64,000 bases of DNA from a bacterium (GCA_021817905.1 JAKAFM010000001.1:3985-67984); one strand, 5' to 3'. Counted from the stretch's first letter, positions 3,689 to 52,963 are shown. Notes: generated from the letters alone by a model not told the origin. Translations and numbers: made by a program.

Positions 3689-4465
3689 AATCTTTTGGAA
3701 CTTACCAACATACTCGCGTGCATACTTTTTAAGCATTTTTACAATCTGGTAATTATTAATTTTTTTAAGCGCTTTTTCCCAACTCACCCAATCACGCACT
3801 GACTTCAGACTCTCAAGTTGTTCACGGATATCATCACTCAATATTCCTTTAATTTTTGCCTTTTCCATGGCTATTTCTACTCCTTCTTTGATATATTGCC
3901 AACTTGCCTCGCTAAGAGCCATCTTTTCGTATTTTTCCAAATGAATAACGTTCATGTTAACTACTTTCCACTGATCAAAAACACTATTAAGGTAAGTTTC
4001 CACTCCCAACCGACTCGCCTCTATATGAGCTAAATGCGGCAACAAATCATTTCTAAAATATGCCCGTTCACCGGTTAAATTAGAAAATAATTGCGATTTA
4101 TTTTTGAATCCGCCCAATACTACCTTGGCACGATGAGTCGTCAGCGGTTTTGCCAAGGCCTCAACCTCTGTCGCATTCAAATTTATCAAATCACTATCAC
4201 AAAAAATAACGATATCTCCTTTAGCCTGTTTCACCCCGGCCGCCATCGCTGCCCCCTTACCTCGATTTTTACGAAACGAAATTATTCGCAATTTTTTCCG
4301 GGAACAACTACTTAACTGTCCCAAACTTCCATCGGTGGAACCATCATTAATAGCAATTATTTCGTCAATTTTATCACCCAAACATAATGCTTCCACCACC
4401 CCCTTAACCGTCTTTTCTTCGTTATATACCGGAACAATAACTGTCAACTTAAAACCTGCAATCAT
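3674..4465 (-). CDS. Family 2 glycosyltransferase (DPM1-like)
   Basis: VIVPVYNEE...INDGSTDGS...CDSDL: the DxD and GT-A fold motifs. Confidence 0.8.
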   Translation of the reverse strand: MIAGFKLTVIVPVYNEEKTVKGVVEALCLGDKIDEIIAINDGSTDGSLGQLSSCSRKKLRIISFRKNRGKGAAMAAGVKQAKGDIVIFCDSDLINLNATEVEALAKPLTTHRAKVVLGGFKNKSQLFSNLTGERAYFRNDLLPHLAHIEASRLGVETYLNSVFDQWKVVNMNVIHLEKYEKMALSEASWQYIKEGVEIAMEKAKIKGILSDDIREQLESLKSVRDWVSWEKALKKINNYQIVKMLKKYAREYVGKFQKILGVD

Positions 4466-4485
4466 TAGCTCTATAATAGCAAAGG

Positions 4486-6444
4486 ATGACCTACTACAAC
4501 TTAAGCGATTTTAACCTCGACACTCTTTCTCCCAACATTTTGGGCGAAATACTTATCGAAGCCAAAAAAGCTTACTACACTACCGGCAAACCGATTATGG
4601 ACGATCACACCTATGACACGTTGGAAACTATTCTAAAACAAAAAAACCCCTACCATCGCCTCTTTAAAAAAGTCGGTCATCAAAACTTTGATACCGGCTT
4701 TGATAAAAAAAATCATCAAATGGCCATGGGATCCGAAAACAAAGTTACTACCTACGAAGAACTTAAAAAATATTTTGAACTAAAAAAAATTCCGCCCACT
4801 ACCGATTTTGTTGTCCAACCAAAATGTGACGGCATTTCTCTTGAAATAATCTACCAAAACGGTCAGCTTGTCGAAGCCATTACTCGGGGAGACGGTTTTA
4901 TTGGCGACATTATTACCCAAAATGTGATCAAGATGCAAAACGTAGTCATCAATTTACCCCAAAAATTCACCGGTTCTGTCCGTACTGAAATTGTAGTTAC
5001 TACCCGAGACTTTATAAAACTCAATCAACAGGTCAAATCCGAGGATGCGTATTCCAATCCTCGCAACGCTGCCTCAGGATTAGCCCAACGTCTTGATGGT
5101 CAATATGCAGAATTTTGCAGCCTCTATGCAGTTGATATGATGAGCAAAAACCCTCCATGGGACAATTCCACTGAATCAGAAAAAATAAATAAGCTGTCTT
5201 CTCTGGGATTTACCACCGTCGAATCTCATCTTTGTCATACCTTTACCGACATCGAAAAAATCTATCAACTTTTTTTAACCACCAAACGACAAACCTACCC
5301 CTACGAAATTGACGGGTTAGTTATAAAAATCAACAATCTCAAGCTACAAGAAGAACTGGGCCGTCTCAATAATCGCCCCAAAGGCCAAGTTGCCTATAAA
5401 TTTCCCGCCAGTAGCAATCTCAGTCGAATTATCGCTATTGACTGGCAAGTCGGCCCCTTAGGAACCATCACCCCTGTTGCCCAAATAGAACCGGTCGAAA
5501 TTTCCGGCGCTATTATTACCTATGCCTCACTGGCTAACCTCGACTTAATCAAAGAAAAAAACATCAATCTTAACGATATCGTCAAAATTAGCCGCCGCGG
5601 CGATGTTATTCCCCACATCGAAACCGTAGTCACCAAAGTTACCCCGGGTTTTATAAAACCACCCACCCTATGCCCTGAATGCCACACCACCCTGATTCAA
5701 GACCATAAATTTCTTAAATGTCCCAACCCTGTCTGCCCCGCCCAAACCCTTGGTTTACTTAGACTCTTTTGCTCCGTCCTTGATATCAAAGGTATTTCCG
5801 AAAAAACTATCGCCAAATTAATCACCGCCGGCAAAATTAATCACCCTGGAGATTTTTATAAACTAACGGTCGCTGATTTTAATAACCTAGAAGGCTTAGG
5901 AGAAAAATCAGGGACTAACATTGTTCATCAAATTCAGTCCAAACGTGAACTCGATCTGGAGACCATCTTTCATGCAGCCGCCATTCCTCATTTTTCTCAT
6001 GCCCGGATCAGACAACTTATTAGCGCTGGCTTTAACACCCCGACCAAACTACTCAATATCTCCATCGAACAACTTGAAACCCTTCCCGGCATCCAAATTA
6101 CCCTCGCCAACAAAATTTACAACGGTATTCACCTACGTCGTACTAATATCGAGTCTATTTTATCCCACGTAACTATTAAGAATTTGAAATTAGAAATTAG
6201 AAATTTGACATTGGCTGGTTTATCTTTTGCCATTACCGGTCAGCTTTCTCAACCCCGTCCAAAAATACAATCAGTGATTGAAGCCGCCGGTGGCAAGATA
6301 GCCAACACCATTACCAAAACGACTTCCTACTTGGTTACCAATGAAACAGACTCGGATTCCTCAAAATTCCTTGCTGCTAAAAAATTTAATATCCCCATCA
6401 TTACCGAAGAAAAACTTTATAAATTTATCAAAATAGCAGAATAG
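4486..6444 (+). CDS. ligA: NAD-dependent DNA ligase
   Basis: KxDG adenylation motif (KCDGISL). Zn-finger CPECHTTL...C. C-terminal BRCT domain. 652 aa. Confidence 0.95.
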   Translation: MTYYNLSDFNLDTLSPNILGEILIEAKKAYYTTGKPIMDDHTYDTLETILKQKNPYHRLFKKVGHQNFDTGFDKKNHQMAMGSENKVTTYEELKKYFELKKIPPTTDFVVQPKCDGISLEIIYQNGQLVEAITRGDGFIGDIITQNVIKMQNVVINLPQKFTGSVRTEIVVTTRDFIKLNQQVKSEDAYSNPRNAASGLAQRLDGQYAEFCSLYAVDMMSKNPPWDNSTESEKINKLSSLGFTTVESHLCHTFTDIEKIYQLFLTTKRQTYPYEIDGLVIKINNLKLQEELGRLNNRPKGQVAYKFPASSNLSRIIAIDWQVGPLGTITPVAQIEPVEISGAIITYASLANLDLIKEKNINLNDIVKISRRGDVIPHIETVVTKVTPGFIKPPTLCPECHTTLIQDHKFLKCPNPVCPAQTLGLLRLFCSVLDIKGISEKTIAKLITAGKINHPGDFYKLTVADFNNLEGLGEKSGTNIVHQIQSKRELDLETIFHAAAIPHFSHARIRQLISAGFNTPTKLLNISIEQLETLPGIQITLANKIYNGIHLRRTNIESILSHVTIKNLKLEIRNLTLAGLSFAITGQLSQPRPKIQSVIEAAGGKIANTITKTTSYLVTNETDSDSSKFLAAKKFNIPIITEEKLYKFIKIAE

Positions 6445-7140: not shown

Positions 7141-7208
7141 CTCTGCATTAGCACAAAGTCCGTGAGCTTTAGCGAAACGGATTGCAGAAAGGGCGGTTCG
7201 ACTCCGCC

Positions 7209-47532: not shown

Positions 47533-48257
47533 TGTTACTTTTAATCTTCATCCTAAAAACTATCATTCAACCGATATCCGCTTATGCCATTGCCAAACCT
47601 ACCCTGGCAATTACCCCAACATTAATCGCCACCACGTCTGCTGATCTTTCTCCTACAGTTACTCCCGACAGCACCTCACTAACCGAAATCCAAAAGATAA
47701 GAGAAGCCGTTCAGCAAAAAGTAAAAGAAAAATTAAGTGAAATTGTTGCCCTTGATACAACCAAAAAAAGAGGTGTCTATGGTAACATTTCAACAATTAG
47801 TGCATCCACCATCACTTTAACCAAAGACGACAACTCTACTATCCAGATAAACACCGATGACACCACCGCATTTATTGATATTAATCGCAAAAAAATCGAC
47901 ATTACCAAACTAAAAACTGGGCAGTCTATATTAGTCATGGGCTACAACAATAATGATGGTAGCCTGGCCGCCAAAAGAATAGTAGTTAACGATCCCTCAT
48001 ACCTTCCCGTTAAAAAAATTATCACCATGGGAAAAATTGTTGACCGTTCCCAAGCTACAAATGTCGCTTTAATTGTTCCTCTCACCGACAAAAACACTCA
48101 ATATCAAGTATCTCTAGTTAACGCCACCACCATTGTCGATAGTACTAATAAGAAATTAGCGATAAAAGATGTTACCGTCGGCAAAAAAGTCATTGCTATA
48201 TTGTCGCCTAGCGCCAAAAATAAAACCTATACCACCGACAAAATTATTATCTTCTAA
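47532..48257 (+). CDS. Hypothetical secreted protein
   Basis: 241 aa with a signal peptide (ISAYAIA). Start overlaps the stop of the preceding gene. Confidence 0.5.
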   Translation: MLLLIFILKTIIQPISAYAIAKPTLAITPTLIATTSADLSPTVTPDSTSLTEIQKIREAVQQKVKEKLSEIVALDTTKKRGVYGNISTISASTITLTKDDNSTIQINTDDTTAFIDINRKKIDITKLKTGQSILVMGYNNNDGSLAAKRIVVNDPSYLPVKKIITMGKIVDRSQATNVALIVPLTDKNTQYQVSLVNATTIVDSTNKKLAIKDVTVGKKVIAILSPSAKNKTYTTDKIIIF

Positions 48258-48823
48258 CTAATCCTTCGTCCCAGCCCTACGCTCTCTTTTCTCAATAGTG
48301 AACTATAATTGGTTATCCAATTTTTTTCAAAAATACCAACAGTAATCCTATTGCCTGCAAACTGAGAACTGGCACAAACATCCACCGTCTTAATCGCTGC
48401 CAAAACCATGAGATACGAATTAAAAGAACTGGTTTCAAATACAACATTAACATTTGGCACTATTTCCCCGACAACATAATCTACCCGCTCATTACAAATA
48501 TCTTGCCAATGGCAATATCGCCACCTATCCTGCTCCGACCACTCCGCACTCTCCATTACCTTCGCCCACGACAACCTCGACCTCAAATACTCTTCCACGT
48601 GTGATAATAATCTCCTTCCATATCGTGCTTCACTTTGAAAGAAATAATCAGCAATTGCGATTGGATAGTCTTGAATTATCATTAGCCCCTTTTCCGGATC
48701 AAGATAATTACTAATAATGTTTTTTATGCGTGGTTCACGCCGCAAAACTTCGTGATACATCAAAAATGTGTCCATCCCTGCCAGTGCCCGAATCATCCGG
48801 TAACGTTCTTCGCTGATTCCCAT
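48254..48823 (-). CDS. Hypothetical protein
   Basis: 189 aa with no recognisable motif. Confidence 0.45.
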   Translation of the reverse strand: MGISEERYRMIRALAGMDTFLMYHEVLRREPRIKNIISNYLDPEKGLMIIQDYPIAIADYFFQSEARYGRRLLSHVEEYLRSRLSWAKVMESAEWSEQDRWRYCHWQDICNERVDYVVGEIVPNVNVVFETSSFNSYLMVLAAIKTVDVCASSQFAGNRITVGIFEKNWITNYSSLLRKESVGLGRRIS

Positions 48824-48856: not shown

Positions 48857-48976
48857 TTGACTTTAAAGCCGCCAACCAGTAAAATTCCCCTATGAAATTG
48901 AGCATTTCATTTCATCATCACGCCAACTAAGTGTGGCGGGTGTTTTGGTAAATCCCCGTCAAGGGGATTTTTTTTG
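48857..48976 (+). promoter_or_regulatory. Putative histidine leader-peptide transcription attenuator (copy A): promoter, His-His-His mini-ORF and intrinsic terminator
   Basis: -35 TTGACT (48857-62), 17-nt spacer, -10 TAAAAT (48880-85). Mini-ORF 48892-48930 ATG AAA TTG AGC ATT TCA TTT CAT CAT CAC GCC AAC TAA = MKLSISFHHHAN. Hairpin CGCCA/TGGCG overlaps the stop codon. Terminator AATCCCC-GTCAA-GGGGATT followed by T8 (48951-48977). Confidence 0.55.
48892..48930 (+). CDS. 12-aa His-rich leader peptide MKLSISFHHHAN (attenuator copy A)
   Basis: Three consecutive His codons immediately before alternative hairpins and a terminator. The start is leaderless or nearly so relative to the predicted promoter. 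Confidence 0.45.
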   Translation: MKLSISFHHHAN

Positions 48977-49043
48977 CTTCTTTAGGTCTAATTTTGAACG
49001 AAGTGCTAAAATTTGTCTAAAGAAGCAATCCGTCTCAAACGGA

Positions 49044-49070
49044 TTAACATGGTGGTAGACGCTCAATTGG
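49044..49070 (+). other. Duplicated 5' fragment of tRNA-His (5' flank + acceptor + D-arm start)
   Basis: TTAACATGGTGGTAGACGCTCAATTGG versus the genuine gene TTAACATGGTGGTATTAGCTCAATTGG at 49143-49170. Confidence 0.5.
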
Positions 49071-49150
49071 CGAATCTGCAGATGAGTCCGTCGACTGACG
49101 GATTAGAGGCCTAATTGATATACTCCACTAAAATAACGTTTCTTTAACAT

Positions 49151-49225
49151 GGTGGTATTAGCTCAATTGGTTAGAGCGCAGCTCTGTGAAAGCTGAGGTT
49201 GCCGGTTCAAGTCCGGTATACCACC
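49151..49225 (+). tRNA. tRNA-His (anticodon GUG) with genome-encoded G-1
   Basis: G-1 then acceptor GTGGTAT/ATACCAC. D-arm GCTC-AATTGGTTA-GAGC. Anticodon loop CTGTGAA. T-loop TTCAAGT. Discriminator C. Confidence 0.85.
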
Positions 49226-49235
49226 CCTAAATAGT

Positions 49236-50510
49236 TCAATGACTCCAACGAAATCTTCTGGATGAGGTGTACCATGCACTACCACTTCCCGACCTAGCCC
49301 CGACTCTATTAAATTCCTCAATTCTTCTAAAGACACTCGGAAAACGCGCTTCTCTATTCCAATCGGGGTCAACTTTATTAACCATTTCCGGATTATTCAA
49401 ATAGAAAGTAATAAGTTCTGCCATTATCGCTAGACCTTCTTTACATACGTCATAAACATCTTTATACATTGGTCCGTTTTCCTGAGTACTAAGTGCTCTA
49501 AGAATAAAACCACGCGATTGACGATAATACTCTTCTAATTGAGAAGGAGAAACTAAATCGTTTCTTTTAACATTTTTGGGAAGATTTGAAAGCAAATCTA
49601 AAGCATAAAAAACAAAAGCTGGAAGGAGTCTCATATCAGAAATAATTTCACCATTATGCCTAACCCCCTTCATCTCTTGTGCTTCAAAAGATGATAGGTG
49701 TCTCATGGGATATTTAGTATTTCTATTATCGACCTCAAGCAAAAAGTGCCCAATATTTTCCAAATAAAAATCAACAGTATCGGCATTTAAAAACCCCAGT
49801 TCTAACAGTTTCTCTACAAAATAAGTATCTGCTGCCATACTAAATATTCGTTTCATGTCAGCCCATCCCATATATTTTTCAATCTGAGCTATTTCTTTTG
49901 GTAATCCATGGTCGTTAGTTTCACGCAAAACGTTTTCGGGCAATGCCATACATATTAACAACGGGGCCAACATAAAAGCAGTTTCCGAAGTATAGGGTGG
50001 TGCTGATAAATTAATTCTCTGTACCCCTGCCTGTAATAACTCACTCATTCGTTCTTCCGCATAAATATCGTCAAGCATTTTTCTATTATTCTCAATTATT
50101 ACCTTGTTACCATATTTATGTCCAAAATTTTCATTTATAGCTTCAAACAGTTCATCAAAAGTCACTTGACCTTTCATTTCCGCCAAAGTCGACAAGGTAA
50201 TCTTAACAAAATCAAGTGGTACCAATCTCGGCTCAACTAACCCATAAATAGACTTATCTTCTTGATATAACTCCCAACGATGATCACGATACCACGTTTC
50301 GCCATGTTCGCTAATACAATGTTCCTCATATTCTTTCATACATGCTTTAATCTGCCTATCAAATCCTCCTAGTCCAGAATAAGTACTGTCTGTACCAAAA
50401 ACCCAACCTGCTTGATTAAGTGTAATAACTGGCACCAACTGAACAGGTGGCAAATTACTCCGTATCGCCCTCCTGAATCCATCATAACCTTGAGATGTTT
50501 CAATTTTCAT
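49236..50510 (-). CDS. Hypothetical 424-aa protein bracketed by the two attenuator-like elements
   Basis: Long ORF of unrecognised family. An alternative frame near the 3' end (49163-49372) looks protein-like, suggesting a possible frameshift or degraded C-terminus. Confidence 0.5.
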   Translation of the reverse strand: MKIETSQGYDGFRRAIRSNLPPVQLVPVITLNQAGWVFGTDSTYSGLGGFDRQIKACMKEYEEHCISEHGETWYRDHRWELYQEDKSIYGLVEPRLVPLDFVKITLSTLAEMKGQVTFDELFEAINENFGHKYGNKVIIENNRKMLDDIYAEERMSELLQAGVQRINLSAPPYTSETAFMLAPLLICMALPENVLRETNDHGLPKEIAQIEKYMGWADMKRIFSMAADTYFVEKLLELGFLNADTVDFYLENIGHFLLEVDNRNTKYPMRHLSSFEAQEMKGVRHNGEIISDMRLLPAFVFYALDLLSNLPKNVKRNDLVSPSQLEEYYRQSRGFILRALSTQENGPMYKDVYDVCKEGLAIMAELITFYLNNPEMVNKVDPDWNREARFPSVFRRIEEFNRVGARSGSGSAWYTSSRRFRWSH

Positions 50511-50669
50511 TTGTAATCTAAGTTACTATAGGCTATAATTATACCATTATGCTCAAAACTAATCTTTTTATCCATCATACCCATACCGTGGTCACCACCC
50601 GCGGGGTAGTGGTCTGACCCTAAATTTTGAGTAGTCTTTTTAATCCCCGCACCCGCGGGGATTTTTGTG
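50511..50669 (+). promoter_or_regulatory. Putative histidine leader-peptide transcription attenuator (copy B) upstream of the ORF73-dapF-like-hisS-rpmE-prfA' operon
   Basis: -35 TTGTAA (50511-16), 17-nt spacer, -10 TATAAT (50534-39). Mini-ORF 50549-50617 = MLKTNLFIHHTHTVVTTRGVVV. 1:2 hairpin GGTCACCAC/GTGGTCTGACC. The 11-mer CACCCGCGGGG (50596-50606) is repeated exactly in the terminator (50650-50660) and so can form an antiterminator with the terminator 5' arm. Terminator AATCCCCGC-ACCC-GCGGGGATT followed by a U-tract (50642-50669). Confidence 0.55.
50549..50617 (+). CDS. 22-aa His-rich leader peptide MLKTNLFIHHTHTVVTTRGVVV (attenuator copy B)
   Basis: Three His codons in four positions (CAT CAT ACC CAT), placed just upstream of region 1 of the alternative hairpins. 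Confidence 0.45.
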   Translation: MLKTNLFIHHTHTVVTTRGVVV

Positions 50670-50787
50670 TCTCTTTAGGTCGAAATTTAAACGTAGTGAA
50701 AAATTTTGCCTAAAGATACCATCCGTGAGCGCCAGCAAAGCGGATATCTCAGACGGGTAGATCCCCTCCTTATTATTTTTTAAAACT

Positions 50788-51009
50788 ATGACCGAAATTC
50801 AAAAAAATAGTCAATTAACCTGGGACGTTTCTGAAGAAGAAGCTAACCGTATAAATTTACCTGCAAATGATTGCCGGCGATTTAATGGCGGACAAATCGC
50901 CACTCCAGAGCAACAAGCTGCCTGGAAAGTTCGACCGAGAACAACATTAGTATCCATTGCAAAAAACCAATTAATAGTCATTAATCGACTCAGGGAGGAA
51001 CTACTATGA
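50788..51009 (+). CDS. Hypothetical 73-aa protein, first gene of the hisS operon
   Basis: Its stop overlaps the next gene's start (ATGA). No recognisable motif. Confidence 0.4.
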   Translation: MTEIQKNSQLTWDVSEEEANRINLPANDCRRFNGGQIATPEQQAAWKVRPRTTLVSIAKNQLIVINRLREELL

Positions 51010-51716
51010 ACATAAAGTATCAACTCATTTCCCCCTCTGGGAATCTTACCGCCATAATTAATGGTCAGTATTCAGCCTCAGAAAAAAGTCGTATTAATCA
51101 AAAAATATTCGCCACCAATAAACTGGTCGAACAAATTGGTTACATCTTTCAAAAAGATTCGAAAAATTATTTTGAAATGATGGGTAATGAATTTTCCGGC
51201 AATGGTTGTCGCGCCGCAACATTGGCATTTCTCAATAATAATCCGGGAAAAATTTCATTTTTTACCTCTGGTATCAATAAAATAATAATCGGAAAGATAG
51301 ACAATGGTAATGCAACAGTCGCTATTCCTTCTCAAAAAGTGAACTTTATCAAAATAAGCAATACTATTTATTCAACAGTAATTTTCAATACCTTAATGAT
51401 CATTTCTGCAGATAATATCAACGATAAATCGAAAATTATCAAAAGATATTCTGATAAATACAATGCTATCGGATTTATGAGTTATCAAAAACAAGATAAC
51501 CAAATAAAGCTCAATCCCTGGTTTTGGGTCAAAGAAACCAATAGTCTCATTAATGAAACAGCCTGCGGCAGTGGCTCGATAGTTGTTGCCAAACTATTAG
51601 CTAAATCAACTATTTTCCAACCTTCAGGTCAGGCCCTCAAAATTAGGTTTAATAAACAAACAATCAATCTCAGTGGACCCATAAAATTGCTTACTGCTTA
51701 TAATGTTAAAATCTAA
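51006..51716 (+). CDS. DapF/PhzF-fold (diaminopimelate-epimerase-like) protein, non-canonical
   Basis: EFSGNGCRAATLAF resembles the DapF box xCGNGxRC, with Ser in place of the first catalytic Cys. ETACGSGSIVVA matches the second-Cys box TxACGTGA. 236 aa. Confidence 0.45.
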   Translation: MNIKYQLISPSGNLTAIINGQYSASEKSRINQKIFATNKLVEQIGYIFQKDSKNYFEMMGNEFSGNGCRAATLAFLNNNPGKISFFTSGINKIIIGKIDNGNATVAIPSQKVNFIKISNTIYSTVIFNTLMIISADNINDKSKIIKRYSDKYNAIGFMSYQKQDNQIKLNPWFWVKETNSLINETACGSGSIVVAKLLAKSTIFQPSGQALKIRFNKQTINLSGPIKLLTAYNVKI

Positions 51717-51718
51717 CT

Positions 51719-52963
51719 ATGAATCAATCAAAACCACAAACTCTCAAAGGTTTTCGTGACTTTTTACCCGACGATATGCGGGTACGCAACTACGTCAAAA
51801 AAATCTGTATCGAAGCCTTTGAACAGTTCGGTTTCGAACCTCTCGAAACCCCAACGCTTGAATATGCTTCTACCTTGATGGGTAAATATGGGAAGGAAGC
51901 CGATAAATTAGTCTATAAATTCAAAGATAATGGCGATCGTGATGTTGGCCTCCGCTATGACTTGACCGTCCCCACCGCCAAAGTTTTAAGCATCTACCAA
52001 CAACAGCTTCCCCTTCCTTTTAAGCGCTATCAAATTCAATCGGTTTGGCGTGCCGACAAACCTCAAAAAGGCCGCTATCGGGAATTCACCCAATGCGACA
52101 TCGACACTTTTGGTCCCCCCTCCCCTTTAAACGATGCCGAAATGGTCGCGGTTATCTATACTATTTTACAAAAATTAAATTTCAAAAAGTACCAAATTAA
52201 AATAAACAGTCGTCAAGTCCTTTTTGAAATAATTACCCGCTCAGGCCTTGAAGAACAAAAATTTACAGTCCTCCAGTCAGTCGATAAATTAAGCAAAATC
52301 GGATATGATGGAGTACAAAAAGAACTCATTTCCAAGGATATTAGCCAGGAACAGATAGAGTTACTGTTTAAATACGTCAAAGAGGCTCAACCAGACGATT
52401 ATCTAAAATCAGTCTTTTCTAAGCTGTCGGAATTTGGTGTCCCTCAAAGTGCCTATAGTTTTGACCCTACCATAGTCCGAGGACTTGACTACTACACCGG
52501 CCCAATTTTTGAAACCTATGTTGAAGAGCCCAAGATCGGATCAATTACCGGTGGTGGTCGCTATGATAATCTAGTCTCCAGCCTTGGCGGCCCCAATATT
52601 TCCGCCGTTGGCACTACGCTTGGCTTTGACCGTATTGTAGACTGTATTATCGAGCTCAAATTGCTCCCTCAACTACAAACCTCTACCACCAAAGTCATGG
52701 TTGCCAATTTTGGCCTCGACACTGAGAAAGAAGCGATAGGTCTAGCCACCACACTTCGTGCCAACAAAATCGCCACCATGCTCTACCCTACCTTTGACAA
52801 ATTAGGCAAACAATTTGCCTATGCCGACGCCAAAAAAATTCCCTTTGTCGCTGCTATTGGAAGTGATGAAGCAAAAGCCGGAAAAATTATGCTCAAAAAC
52901 ATGGCTAAAAAAGAGCAAACTTTAGTTAGTCAAGAAGACTTATTATCAATTCTTATGATATAA
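51719..52963 (+). CDS. hisS: Histidine--tRNA ligase
   Basis: N-terminal KGFRDFLPDDMRVRN signature of HisRS. Class II motifs. C-terminal anticodon-binding domain. 414 aa. Confidence 0.95.
   Translation: MNQSKPQTLKGFRDFLPDDMRVRNYVKKICIEAFEQFGFEPLETPTLEYASTLMGKYGKEADKLVYKFKDNGDRDVGLRYDLTVPTAKVLSIYQQQLPLPFKRYQIQSVWRADKPQKGRYREFTQCDIDTFGPPSPLNDAEMVAVIYTILQKLNFKKYQIKINSRQVLFEIITRSGLEEQKFTVLQSVDKLSKIGYDGVQKELISKDISQEQIELLFKYVKEAQPDDYLKSVFSKLSEFGVPQSAYSFDPTIVRGLDYYTGPIFETYVEEPKIGSITGGGRYDNLVSSLGGPNISAVGTTLGFDRIVDCIIELKLLPQLQTSTTKVMVANFGLDTEKEAIGLATTLRANKIATMLYPTFDKLGKQFAYADAKKIPFVAAIGSDEAKAGKIMLKNMAKKEQTLVSQEDLLSILMI

Follow-up and report, generated by a model that had tools for sequence, protein, structure and literature searches.

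Organization of the histidine loci

The stretch of DNA analysed in the present study (the window; 64,000 nucleotides) comes from a CPR bacterium of the Microgenomates/Woesebacteria type. It contains two putative histidine attenuators, A and B, the first of which precedes the gene for tRNA-His and the second an operon that encodes histidyl-tRNA synthetase (HisRS). Directly after each attenuator terminator lies one copy of a module made of two hairpins, here called H1 and H2. The features of the region are as follows.

48254-48823, minus strand: gene for a 189-aa orphan protein, without Pfam or PHROG match
48857-48885, plus strand: promoter-like site A, TTGACT-17-TAAAAT (promoter scan, sequence)
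48892-48930, plus strand: leader peptide ORF A, MKLSISFHHHAN and stop (read from the sequence)
48950-48975, plus strand: predicted intrinsic terminator A, AAATCCCCGTCAAGGGGATTT plus T-run (terminator scan)
48976-49046, plus strand: module copy A, whole, adjoining the 3' end of terminator A
48976-49026, plus strand: H1-A, hairpin 1 of copy A (sequence reading, folding, alignment)
49027-49046, plus strand: H2-A, hairpin 2 of copy A, AAUCCGU-CUCAA-ACGGAUU (predicted fold)
49044-49070, plus strand: 27-nt partial copy of the tRNA-His 5' end plus the upstream TTAACATGG, 89% identical to 49144-49170
49086-49103, plus strand: third, degenerate H2 copy, GUCCGUC-GACU-GACGGAU followed by TA (sequence, fold)
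49152-49227, plus strand: tRNA-His (GTG), the gene 3' of copy A (ARAGORN, Rfam)
49236-50510, minus strand: gene for a 424-aa orphan protein, without Pfam or PHROG match
50511-50539, plus strand: promoter-like site B, TTGTAA-17-TATAAT (promoter scan)
50549-50617, plus strand: leader peptide ORF B, MLKTNLFIHHTHTVVTTRGVVV and stop (read from the sequence)
50642-50668, plus strand: predicted intrinsic terminator B (terminator scan, fold)
50669-50746, plus strand: module copy B, whole, adjoining the 3' end of terminator B
50669-50719, plus strand: H1-B, hairpin 1 of copy B (folding, alignment)
50720-50746, plus strand: H2-B, hairpin 2 of copy B (folding, alignment)
50747-50763, plus strand: tail of the fragment apparently inserted at B (alignment, comparison with L002 and L097)
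50788-52963, plus strand: operon 3' of copy B, comprising the three genes that follow
50788-51009, plus strand: 73-aa ORF, beginning ATGACCGAAAT
51006-51716, plus strand: 236-aa CntK_N (histidine-racemase-like) protein (domain search)
51719-52963, plus strand: HisRS, hisS (domain search)

Terminators A and B are credible as histidine leader-peptide attenuators, since a promoter-like site, a short His-rich ORF and alternative pairings of the classical attenuator type, as seen in the predicted folds, lie 5' of each. The full sequence of terminator A is AAATCCCCGTCAAGGGGATTTTTTTT and that of terminator B is AATCCCCGCACCCGCGGGGATTTTTGTG; the 5' arm of the latter, CCCCGC, is predicted to be able to pair with an upstream GCGGGG, which is the classical antiterminator arrangement. 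The description of a His leader-peptide attenuator applies to 48892-48975 and to 50549-50668, and the module lies outside both. Rfam gave no match to RF00514 (his operon leader) at either attenuator. The ATG of leader A lies 7 nt past the -10 hexamer of its promoter-like site and the leader A mRNA is therefore probably leaderless; for the two leaders of the window this distance is 7–9 nt. It was observed that the leader ATG lies 6–9 nt past the -10 hexamer in every genome listed (the window, L002, L098, L099, L100, L101, L103, L104 and L004; related loci are referred to by L numbers), and leader mRNAs across these CPR genomes are apparently leaderless.

Orthologous leader ORFs with an HHH run were found in L002, L004, L098, L099, L100, L101, L103 and L104. 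Leader ORF B is preserved in L095 with a different N-terminus, and its HHTHTVV core is conserved in L002, L098, L099, L100 and L104. The usual order in the clade is attenuator A, tRNA-His, attenuator B, an optional hisG, an optional cntK-like gene and hisS; the full order with the pair of attenuators is present in L002, L098, L099, L100 and L104, and at least its first half in L004, L101 and L103. This pair of attenuators is thus widespread in related Microgenomates and would constitute a conserved histidine regulon. The attenuators span 48857-48975 and 50511-50668 in the window, 5035-5183 and 5520-5640 in L002, and 4250-4366 and 4500-4650 in L098. An attenuator in front of a tRNA gene seems to be unusual. 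In two further loci, L007 (about 4700-5003) and L009 (about 4350-4643), tRNA-His lies behind a long structured leader that has no His leader ORF, and these leaders could represent a different type of sensor, such as a T-box.

The 73-aa ORF at the head of the window operon has no Shine-Dalgarno sequence. It shares its start, ATGACCGAAAT, with a 49-aa ORF at 342-491 of L097, and that ORF occupies the position where L098 carries hisG. We infer that the 73-aa ORF may be what is left of hisG, a gene that L098 retains intact behind attenuator B. The genes for ribosomal protein L31 and RF1 follow hisS. The two orphan genes on the minus strand encode mutually unrelated proteins, and for the 424-aa protein a set of 5.8 billion protein clusters contains nothing related apart from the protein itself. 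At both orphan positions the related loci have other genes, and the tRNA-His locus is thus a hot spot of gene turnover. Arrival of the module together with the orphan genes was ruled out, since L095 and L100 have the module with neither gene. The composition of the plus strand of the window is skewed, with 25.5% C and 15.8% G.

Structure of the two-hairpin module

It had been noticed in a sequence-only reading that both attenuator terminators are directly followed by a module of two hairpins with about 75% identity between the copies. Reading of the sequence and the predicted folds bear this out, and the two copies form a 70-nt direct repeat with 77% identity (39 of 51 positions, 76%, in H1 and 13 of 18 in H2). 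The layout is the same in each: an irregular H1 of 51 nt, one unpaired base, and a short H2 with an AUCCG/CGGAU stem. The module measures about 75–95 nt per copy. H1-A reads GCTTCTTTAGGTC...GTCTAAAGAAGC over its 51 nt and is predicted to consist of 11 bp, a bulge, 7–8 bp and an apical C(GAA)G mini-hairpin; it can be extended by two more pairs into the last Ts of terminator A (48974-49028). H2-A, directly 3' of it, is AATCCGTCTCAAACGGATTA in DNA. H2-B has a longer loop that encloses a GC-GCCA-GC mini-hairpin, as is also the case in L100. A degenerate pattern of 45 nt matched twice in the 64-kb window, at copies A and B, where shuffled sequences give an expectation of 0. Copies A and B each fold as two adjacent hairpins, with -23.8 and -24.9 kcal/mol and Z-scores of -5.3 and -4.4 respectively, and none of 200 shuffles folded equally well.

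A distant homologue and conservation of the fold

A true homologue was located in L100, a metagenome contig, by means of a pattern that combined the junction with the 5' end of tRNA-His. L100 is syntenic with the window but only distantly related to it (its dnaB is 71% identical to that of the window), and it has the full module at the tRNA-His (A) position, TTTTTAAGGTCTAAATTTGAAGCGAAGCGCCAAATTTTGCCTTAAAACC and then ATCCAGCAAGCGTTAGCAAGCCGGAT. A covariance model built from A and B alone gives this module 53.8 bits (E 3e-11). Leader and module together are 74% identical to copy A over 115 nt, and they are the sole non-coding, non-tRNA stretch of L100 that blastn aligned to the window. H2 is followed there by GUUUCUUUUU and by a TATAAT hexamer 14 nt before tRNA-His.

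The earlier statement that stem pairings are preserved through covarying positions is thin when A and B alone are compared and holds when L100 is added. Between A and B, two pairs are changed on both sides (C-G to U-A and U-A to A-U), two show wobble switches (G.U/G-C or U-A/U.G) and two are broken in one copy; this is not significant, as 133 of 500 shuffles do as well. The alignment fitted to the covariance model comprised B, L095-B, A and L100, which amount to three independent versions. It contains 6 pairs changed on both sides, with 94% of cells paired; none of 500 shuffles matched any of five measures, and controls with slid partners gave 0–1 such pairs. RNAalifold independently predicted the same two hairpins and likewise 6 compensatory pairs. 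By inspection the apical mini-hairpin also covaries, with A-U/C-G around G-N-A in A and B and G-C/C-G around GAA in L100. The stability of H1 is nearly constant in A, B and L100 (-14.2 to -15.0 kcal/mol) in spite of 12–16 substitutions. When substitutions were placed at random (12 of them for the A/B pair), such stability was retained in 1–3% of trials for A/B and in 1–2% for each comparison of the three versions (p about 0.01–0.02 per comparison). Since the L100 homologue raises the number of covarying pairs to 6, a number that no shuffle reached, the fold of the module is conserved beyond what sequence relatedness explains. The idea of a structural constraint in place of a neutral spacer is thereby upheld, the fold being kept through compensatory changes in A, B and L100, and the homologue supplies the covariation support that had been asked of relatives.

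It should be noted here that template switching that corrects palindromes could mimic covariation. An alternative to be weighed is that the module has no RNA function and is a REP-type DNA palindrome, neutral or selfish, which arose beside the terminator hairpin and whose symmetry is maintained by template switching within a strand; we regard this as unlikely but well short of negligible. The sequence comparison speaks against it at two points. The identity of about 70–74% with L100 is at least that of coding DNA, at a distance where neutral sites should be saturated, and the unpaired positions are conserved too, namely the GGUC bulge region, the apical CGNAG and the single-base linker. Small CPR genomes are, moreover, widely held to lose neutral DNA quickly. 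On the other side, folding shows no consistent strand preference, as such a palindrome would predict. There are four G.U pairs on the plus strand as against one A.C, and the plus strand folds better than the minus strand by 2–5.5 kcal/mol in both window copies; in the L098 module both strands fold about equally, and in L100 the minus strand folds better, the segment used there carrying extra flanking sequence. The strand asymmetry is weak, and assignment of a strand from G.U pairs and folding energy was discarded as not decisive.

The strand was considered also from the side of the neighbouring genes. On another view the module would act on the minus strand, H1 containing a promoter for the divergent or convergent orphan genes (48254-48823 and 49236-50510) or H2 forming a terminator for them. 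This would agree with a promoter-like TAGACA-17-CAAAAT on the minus strand inside H1-A, with a terminator-like call on the same strand at H2-A, and with the position of both copies about 150–230 nt upstream of a minus-strand gene. However, in L100 the upstream gene is co-directional, so that there is no minus-strand gene to serve, and the -10-like hexamer is lost (TCAAAT by sequence reading). L095 has module B without the 424-aa gene, and in the window promoter-like sites exist closer to that gene. The 424-aa orphan is restricted to this species and is hence younger than the module. A role on the minus strand is largely refuted by L100 and L095, and we consider it very improbable. A promoter on the plus strand inside the module was rejected as well, since the extended -10 of copy A (TGcTAAAAT) is not kept in copy B or L100.

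Distribution of the module

Further copies were sought with covariance models R1 and R2 and the degenerate pattern in the window, in 80 hisS loci from GTDB species genomes and in 20 further loci. These searches, of the kind that the sequence-only reading had proposed, found a B-type copy in L095 and the A-type copy in L100. No other copy turned up, whether in the rest of the 64-kb window or in the related CPR loci, about 1.05 Mb in all. The H1 core, sought as an exact pattern in JGI metagenomes, gave no match. A loose pattern gave 9 matches in viral contigs, none fitting the covariance model, and distant blastn searches gave no match for copy B in phages or for copy A with its downstream spacer in plasmids. 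A hairpin directly 3' of tRNA-Ala in the window (7147-7185, AAGTCCGTGAGCTTTAGCGAAACGGATTGC) resembles H2-B in stem and loop, and it is a weak match to the covariance model, with E between 2 and 5. The absence of any copy beyond the two His sites, in the window and in the related DNA, counts against a neutral or selfish palindrome.

At the A position the relatives differ widely. L098 has about 55 nt, in which a short hairpin GGTTCG-12 nt-CGAACC is followed by AATCCGCC-TCT-GGCGGAT and then by CTTTAACAACATGG and the tRNA; this is a reduced module whose H2 and tRNA junction are clearly the same as in copy A. L103, L002 and L004 have only 2, 3 and 14 nt, respectively, between terminator A and tRNA-His. 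In L104 the spacer is about 50 nt long and contains one AU hairpin, and in L099 it is about 85 nt long with three unrelated hairpins. Where the A spacer has at least 50 nt it folds, in all such relatives, into hairpins whose sequences are unrelated (L104, L099, L098, L100 and L101), with z-scores of -2.1 to -4.6, and this fits a general requirement, or tendency, for self-contained spacers. At the B position of L002, L097, L098, L099, L100 and L104 there is no module, and the terminator is directly followed by the 5' UTR or the next ATG.

The module is absent from the orthologous His attenuators of L002, L004, L097, L099, L103 and L104. Thus the view that it regularly accompanies each attenuator terminator does not stand, as it is missing at the orthologous attenuators of these six genomes and at attenuator B of L098 and L100. 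Since several relatives regulate the same genes without it, the module is dispensable for attenuation and for tRNA-His expression. Such dispensability and patchy distribution are what the neutral-palindrome explanation would predict, as are the highly variable length of H1 (24 nt in L098 as against 51 nt in the window), the unrelated palindromic spacers at the same position in L104 and L099, and the movement of other small palindromes in the clade. The example of the latter is a perfect GC-rich palindrome, CCTGCCTGCCGGCAGGCAGG, with 9 occurrences in 7 of 102 related loci and none in the window. It lies at 5557-5574 in L002, 5743-5760 in L099, 1626-1643 in L100, 124-141 in L101 and 75-92 in L006, and twice each in L027 (3695-3712 and 10693-10710) and L080 (2934-2951 and 3113-3130). 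In three genomes it is found inside the coding part of His leader B and in L101 inside the D-loop of a pseudo-tRNA-His, and it looks like a small mobile palindromic repeat.

Outside the window, module B was seen only in L095/L096 among the relatives examined, where it differs from that of the window at 1 of 82 nt, as against a synonymous divergence of 10.9% (pS 0.109) in the adjacent gene. This comparison is suggestive but confounded, since low divergence between L095 and the window spans the whole of 50570-50925, even the synonymous sites in the first part of the 73-aa ORF, and L095 is a recombinant mosaic. L095/L096 (GCA_041643075.1; L095 1-2598) matches the window only over 50534-51745, at about 94–95% identity. 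The matching segment holds leader B, the module, the 73-aa ORF and the cntK-like gene; upstream of it the sequence is unrelated, with a different gene there, and from about 51745 on, in hisS, it is highly diverged. This suggests that the segment may move as a cassette.

Origin of the two copies

The presence of the module at the A position in L100 (full) and in L098 (reduced) marks this position as the ancestral one. Copy B is an old secondary copy, since it is absent from all other B attenuators examined except that of L095. The comparison supports an origin of the module in the spacer between attenuator A and tRNA-His. In the lineage of the window genome a fragment of about 95 nt, made up of H1, H2 and the first tRNA-like bases, was then copied to the corresponding place behind the paralogous attenuator B. 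The tail at B, CTCAGACGG..GTAGA, matches CTCAAACGG..GGTAGA of copy A and the start of its pseudo-tRNA. Relative to L002 and L097, attenuator B is followed by additional sequence that extends from its T-run up to about 50763, beyond which the ancestral 5' UTR resumes. The copying to B predates the shortening of H2-A, since H2-B has the long loop with an inner GC-NNNN-GC hairpin that is also present in L100.

It had been pointed out that a recent segmental duplication could produce the similarity between the copies with no structural constraint. H1 is 76% identical between A and B, 73% between A and L100 and 69% between B and L100, so that the divergence of A and B is comparable to that of either from L100. 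Separate A and B attenuators already exist in L002, L098, L099, L100 and L104. Recent duplication is ruled out by the 76% identity of H1 together with flanks that are orthologous to two separate attenuators. Under the neutral-palindrome explanation, template switching between two similar terminators would have produced copy B by accident.

Between module A and the real tRNA-His lies a rearrangement of about 100 nt (49044-49150), consisting of the 27-nt copy of the tRNA 5' end, the third H2 and about 50 nt more. Neither ARAGORN nor Rfam calls a tRNA at 49044-49070. The rearranged stretch may be the scar of an integration or of a tandem duplication at tRNA-His. L101 likewise has a pseudo-tRNA-His 5' fragment upstream of the real gene. 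The module can be taken as a marker of such events, in that an accessory element of the tRNA-His leader was copied into the leader of the hisS operon and long retained there.

Possible functions of the module

The sole context common to all copies is a plus-strand transcript that reads through a His attenuator; in L100, with its co-directional upstream gene, no minus-strand gene is associated. The explanation that we favour, though tentatively, is that the module is a cis-acting, self-contained RNA spacer or processing element in the read-through leader. It would be transcribed only when the attenuator is read through, would not sense histidine and would act in cis. The two autonomous hairpins would block pairing of the spacer with the upstream attenuator or with the downstream tRNA or mRNA start. 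They would probably also determine processing and stability, H1 being an irregular helix of 19–21 bp, about the size of an RNase III-type site, and H2 being left as a 5' hairpin on the downstream RNA. Of the functions proposed from the sequence alone, a processing or structural role is therefore retained as the best guess, and neither a His-specific second layer nor mobility to unrelated sites finds support.

A second layer of regulation specific for histidine, in which the hairpins bind HisRS, tRNA-His or another protein, or modify RNA polymerase in the manner of put RNA, is suggested by the fact that all copies and homologues lie at genes of the His-tRNA system. The AGUG loop of A and B contains the tRNA-His anticodon GUG, and a hairpin pair with one unpaired base between recalls put RNA. 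But the loop reads AGCG in L100, and this loss of GUG also rules out a mimic of the anticodon arm. The main identity element for HisRS is G-1:C73, and the module is unlike a tRNA-His acceptor stem with this pair. The module contains neither a His codon nor a UGGN motif like that of T-boxes, and even at E up to 10 Rfam assigns it to no family; on sequence reading, its three versions have no exposed CAC or CAU in common. The ancestral site precedes a tRNA gene and not hisS, six relatives manage without the module, and the terminator scan lists no terminator between copy A and tRNA-His that would need to be overridden. Such a second layer is thus rather improbable.

The spacer downstream of copy A brings in another candidate, a small RNA consisting of leader, H1 and H2 that would be gated by the attenuator, released by a second termination or by RNase P cleavage, and active in trans. 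tRNA-His may have a promoter of its own, given the TATAAT of L100 and, in the window, a promoter-like site (49095-49124, extended -10) that separates module A from the tRNA gene. Trans-acting RNAs derived from attenuators exist, rnTrpL being an example. However, there is no U-tract after H2 in copy A, copy B or L098, no target complementarity was identified, and promoter-like sites occur at chance frequency (9 found as against 6.6 expected). We consider a small RNA quite improbable. More broadly, there is little likelihood that the hairpin pair is an attenuator-gated regulatory RNA made when charged tRNA-His is scarce, serving as a second layer of control on the His-tRNA system. If this were true, the RNA would act like put on RNA polymerase, on HisRS or tRNA-His, or as a released small RNA, and the benefit of such control would explain its independent recruitment to the hisS operon.

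The module is a narrow and dispensable addition to a regulatory region of known type, it gives no sign of a new mechanism, and it is a candidate for a small unclassified RNA motif. Should it have a function, one Microgenomates (CPR) lineage would possess a cis-acting RNA motif of its own, and this would show how attenuator read-through transcripts are handled in organisms whose RNA biology is almost unknown. The system around it is more notable, with paired His attenuators that would control tRNA-His and hisG/cntK-like/hisS across many CPR genomes.

Comparison with known systems

A search of the window with Rfam 15 gave no family that reaches its gathering threshold at the module; only tRNAs pass. 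At E up to 10 there were chance-level matches in the module region, such as mir-737 with 23.7 bits (threshold 60) and Phe_leader on the wrong strand with 21.8 bits (threshold 55). Features of histidine sensing, namely an exposed His codon, a T-box motif or likeness to the tRNA-His acceptor stem, were looked for in the module and not found; as for a T-box, there is no Rfam match, the module lies downstream of the terminator and it has no UGGN bulge. A tRNA or tRNA-like element was excluded, as ARAGORN and the Rfam tRNA model detect only the real tRNA-His (49152-49227) at the locus. Class C group II introns insert after terminators, and a remnant of such an intron was therefore considered. It was rejected, as there is no Intron_gpII or other group II match at E up to 10, and the AU-rich H1 with its GNA triloop is unlike domain V.

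The context of the module is that of the His leader-peptide attenuators, as in RF00514 and in Bacillus, with an ORF of His codons, alternative hairpins, a terminator and genes related to His-tRNA; in Bacillus such leader peptides have been described ahead of hisZ and of hisS paralogues (PMC2965389). The module itself differs from these in that it sits past the terminator, is missing at most orthologous attenuators and has no Rfam match. In comparison with the known His attenuators it is also unusual that one of those described here precedes tRNA-His and that the leader ORFs are apparently leaderless.

With REP/BIME palindromes the module shares the form of a short imperfect palindrome beside a terminator, variable length, dispensability and a copy at a second site. 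It differs from them in having two window copies at paralogous sites and loop and bulge nucleotides that are conserved across a deep divergence. Neither a dispersed family nor an associated transposase was found. The window, which is part of the genome, has 2 copies in its 64 kb, and the related loci, about 1.05 Mb in all, contain no copy at an unrelated site. Sequence reading of the ends of the inserted fragment revealed no terminal inverted repeats and no target-site duplication, and the neighbouring ORFs have no Pfam or PHROG match to transposases (RAYT/TnpA).

The put RNA of phage HK022 consists of two stem-loops one unpaired nucleotide apart and brings about processive antitermination. 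The module is alike in its two stem-loops, in the single unpaired nucleotide between them and in its place on a nascent transcript 3' of a promoter. It apparently has no sequence similarity to put RNA and it lies after a terminator rather than before one, and the likeness is thus one of geometry alone.

The form and position of the module also resemble those of intercistronic RNase III processing hairpins, such as those of T7 early mRNA and rRNA operon spacers, in that a non-coding spacer of a longer transcript harbours an irregular, roughly 20-bp helix interrupted by a bulge and an internal loop. An RNase III site is a double-stranded helix of about two turns, and the predicted H1 helix of 19–21 bp with its bulge would be compatible with this. 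H1 differs from these sites in being AU-rich and topped by a conserved C(GNA)G mini-hairpin. In the same way, by a likeness of form and position only, the small H2 would cap the downstream RNA like the 5' stabiliser hairpins of which that in the ompA 5' UTR is an example.
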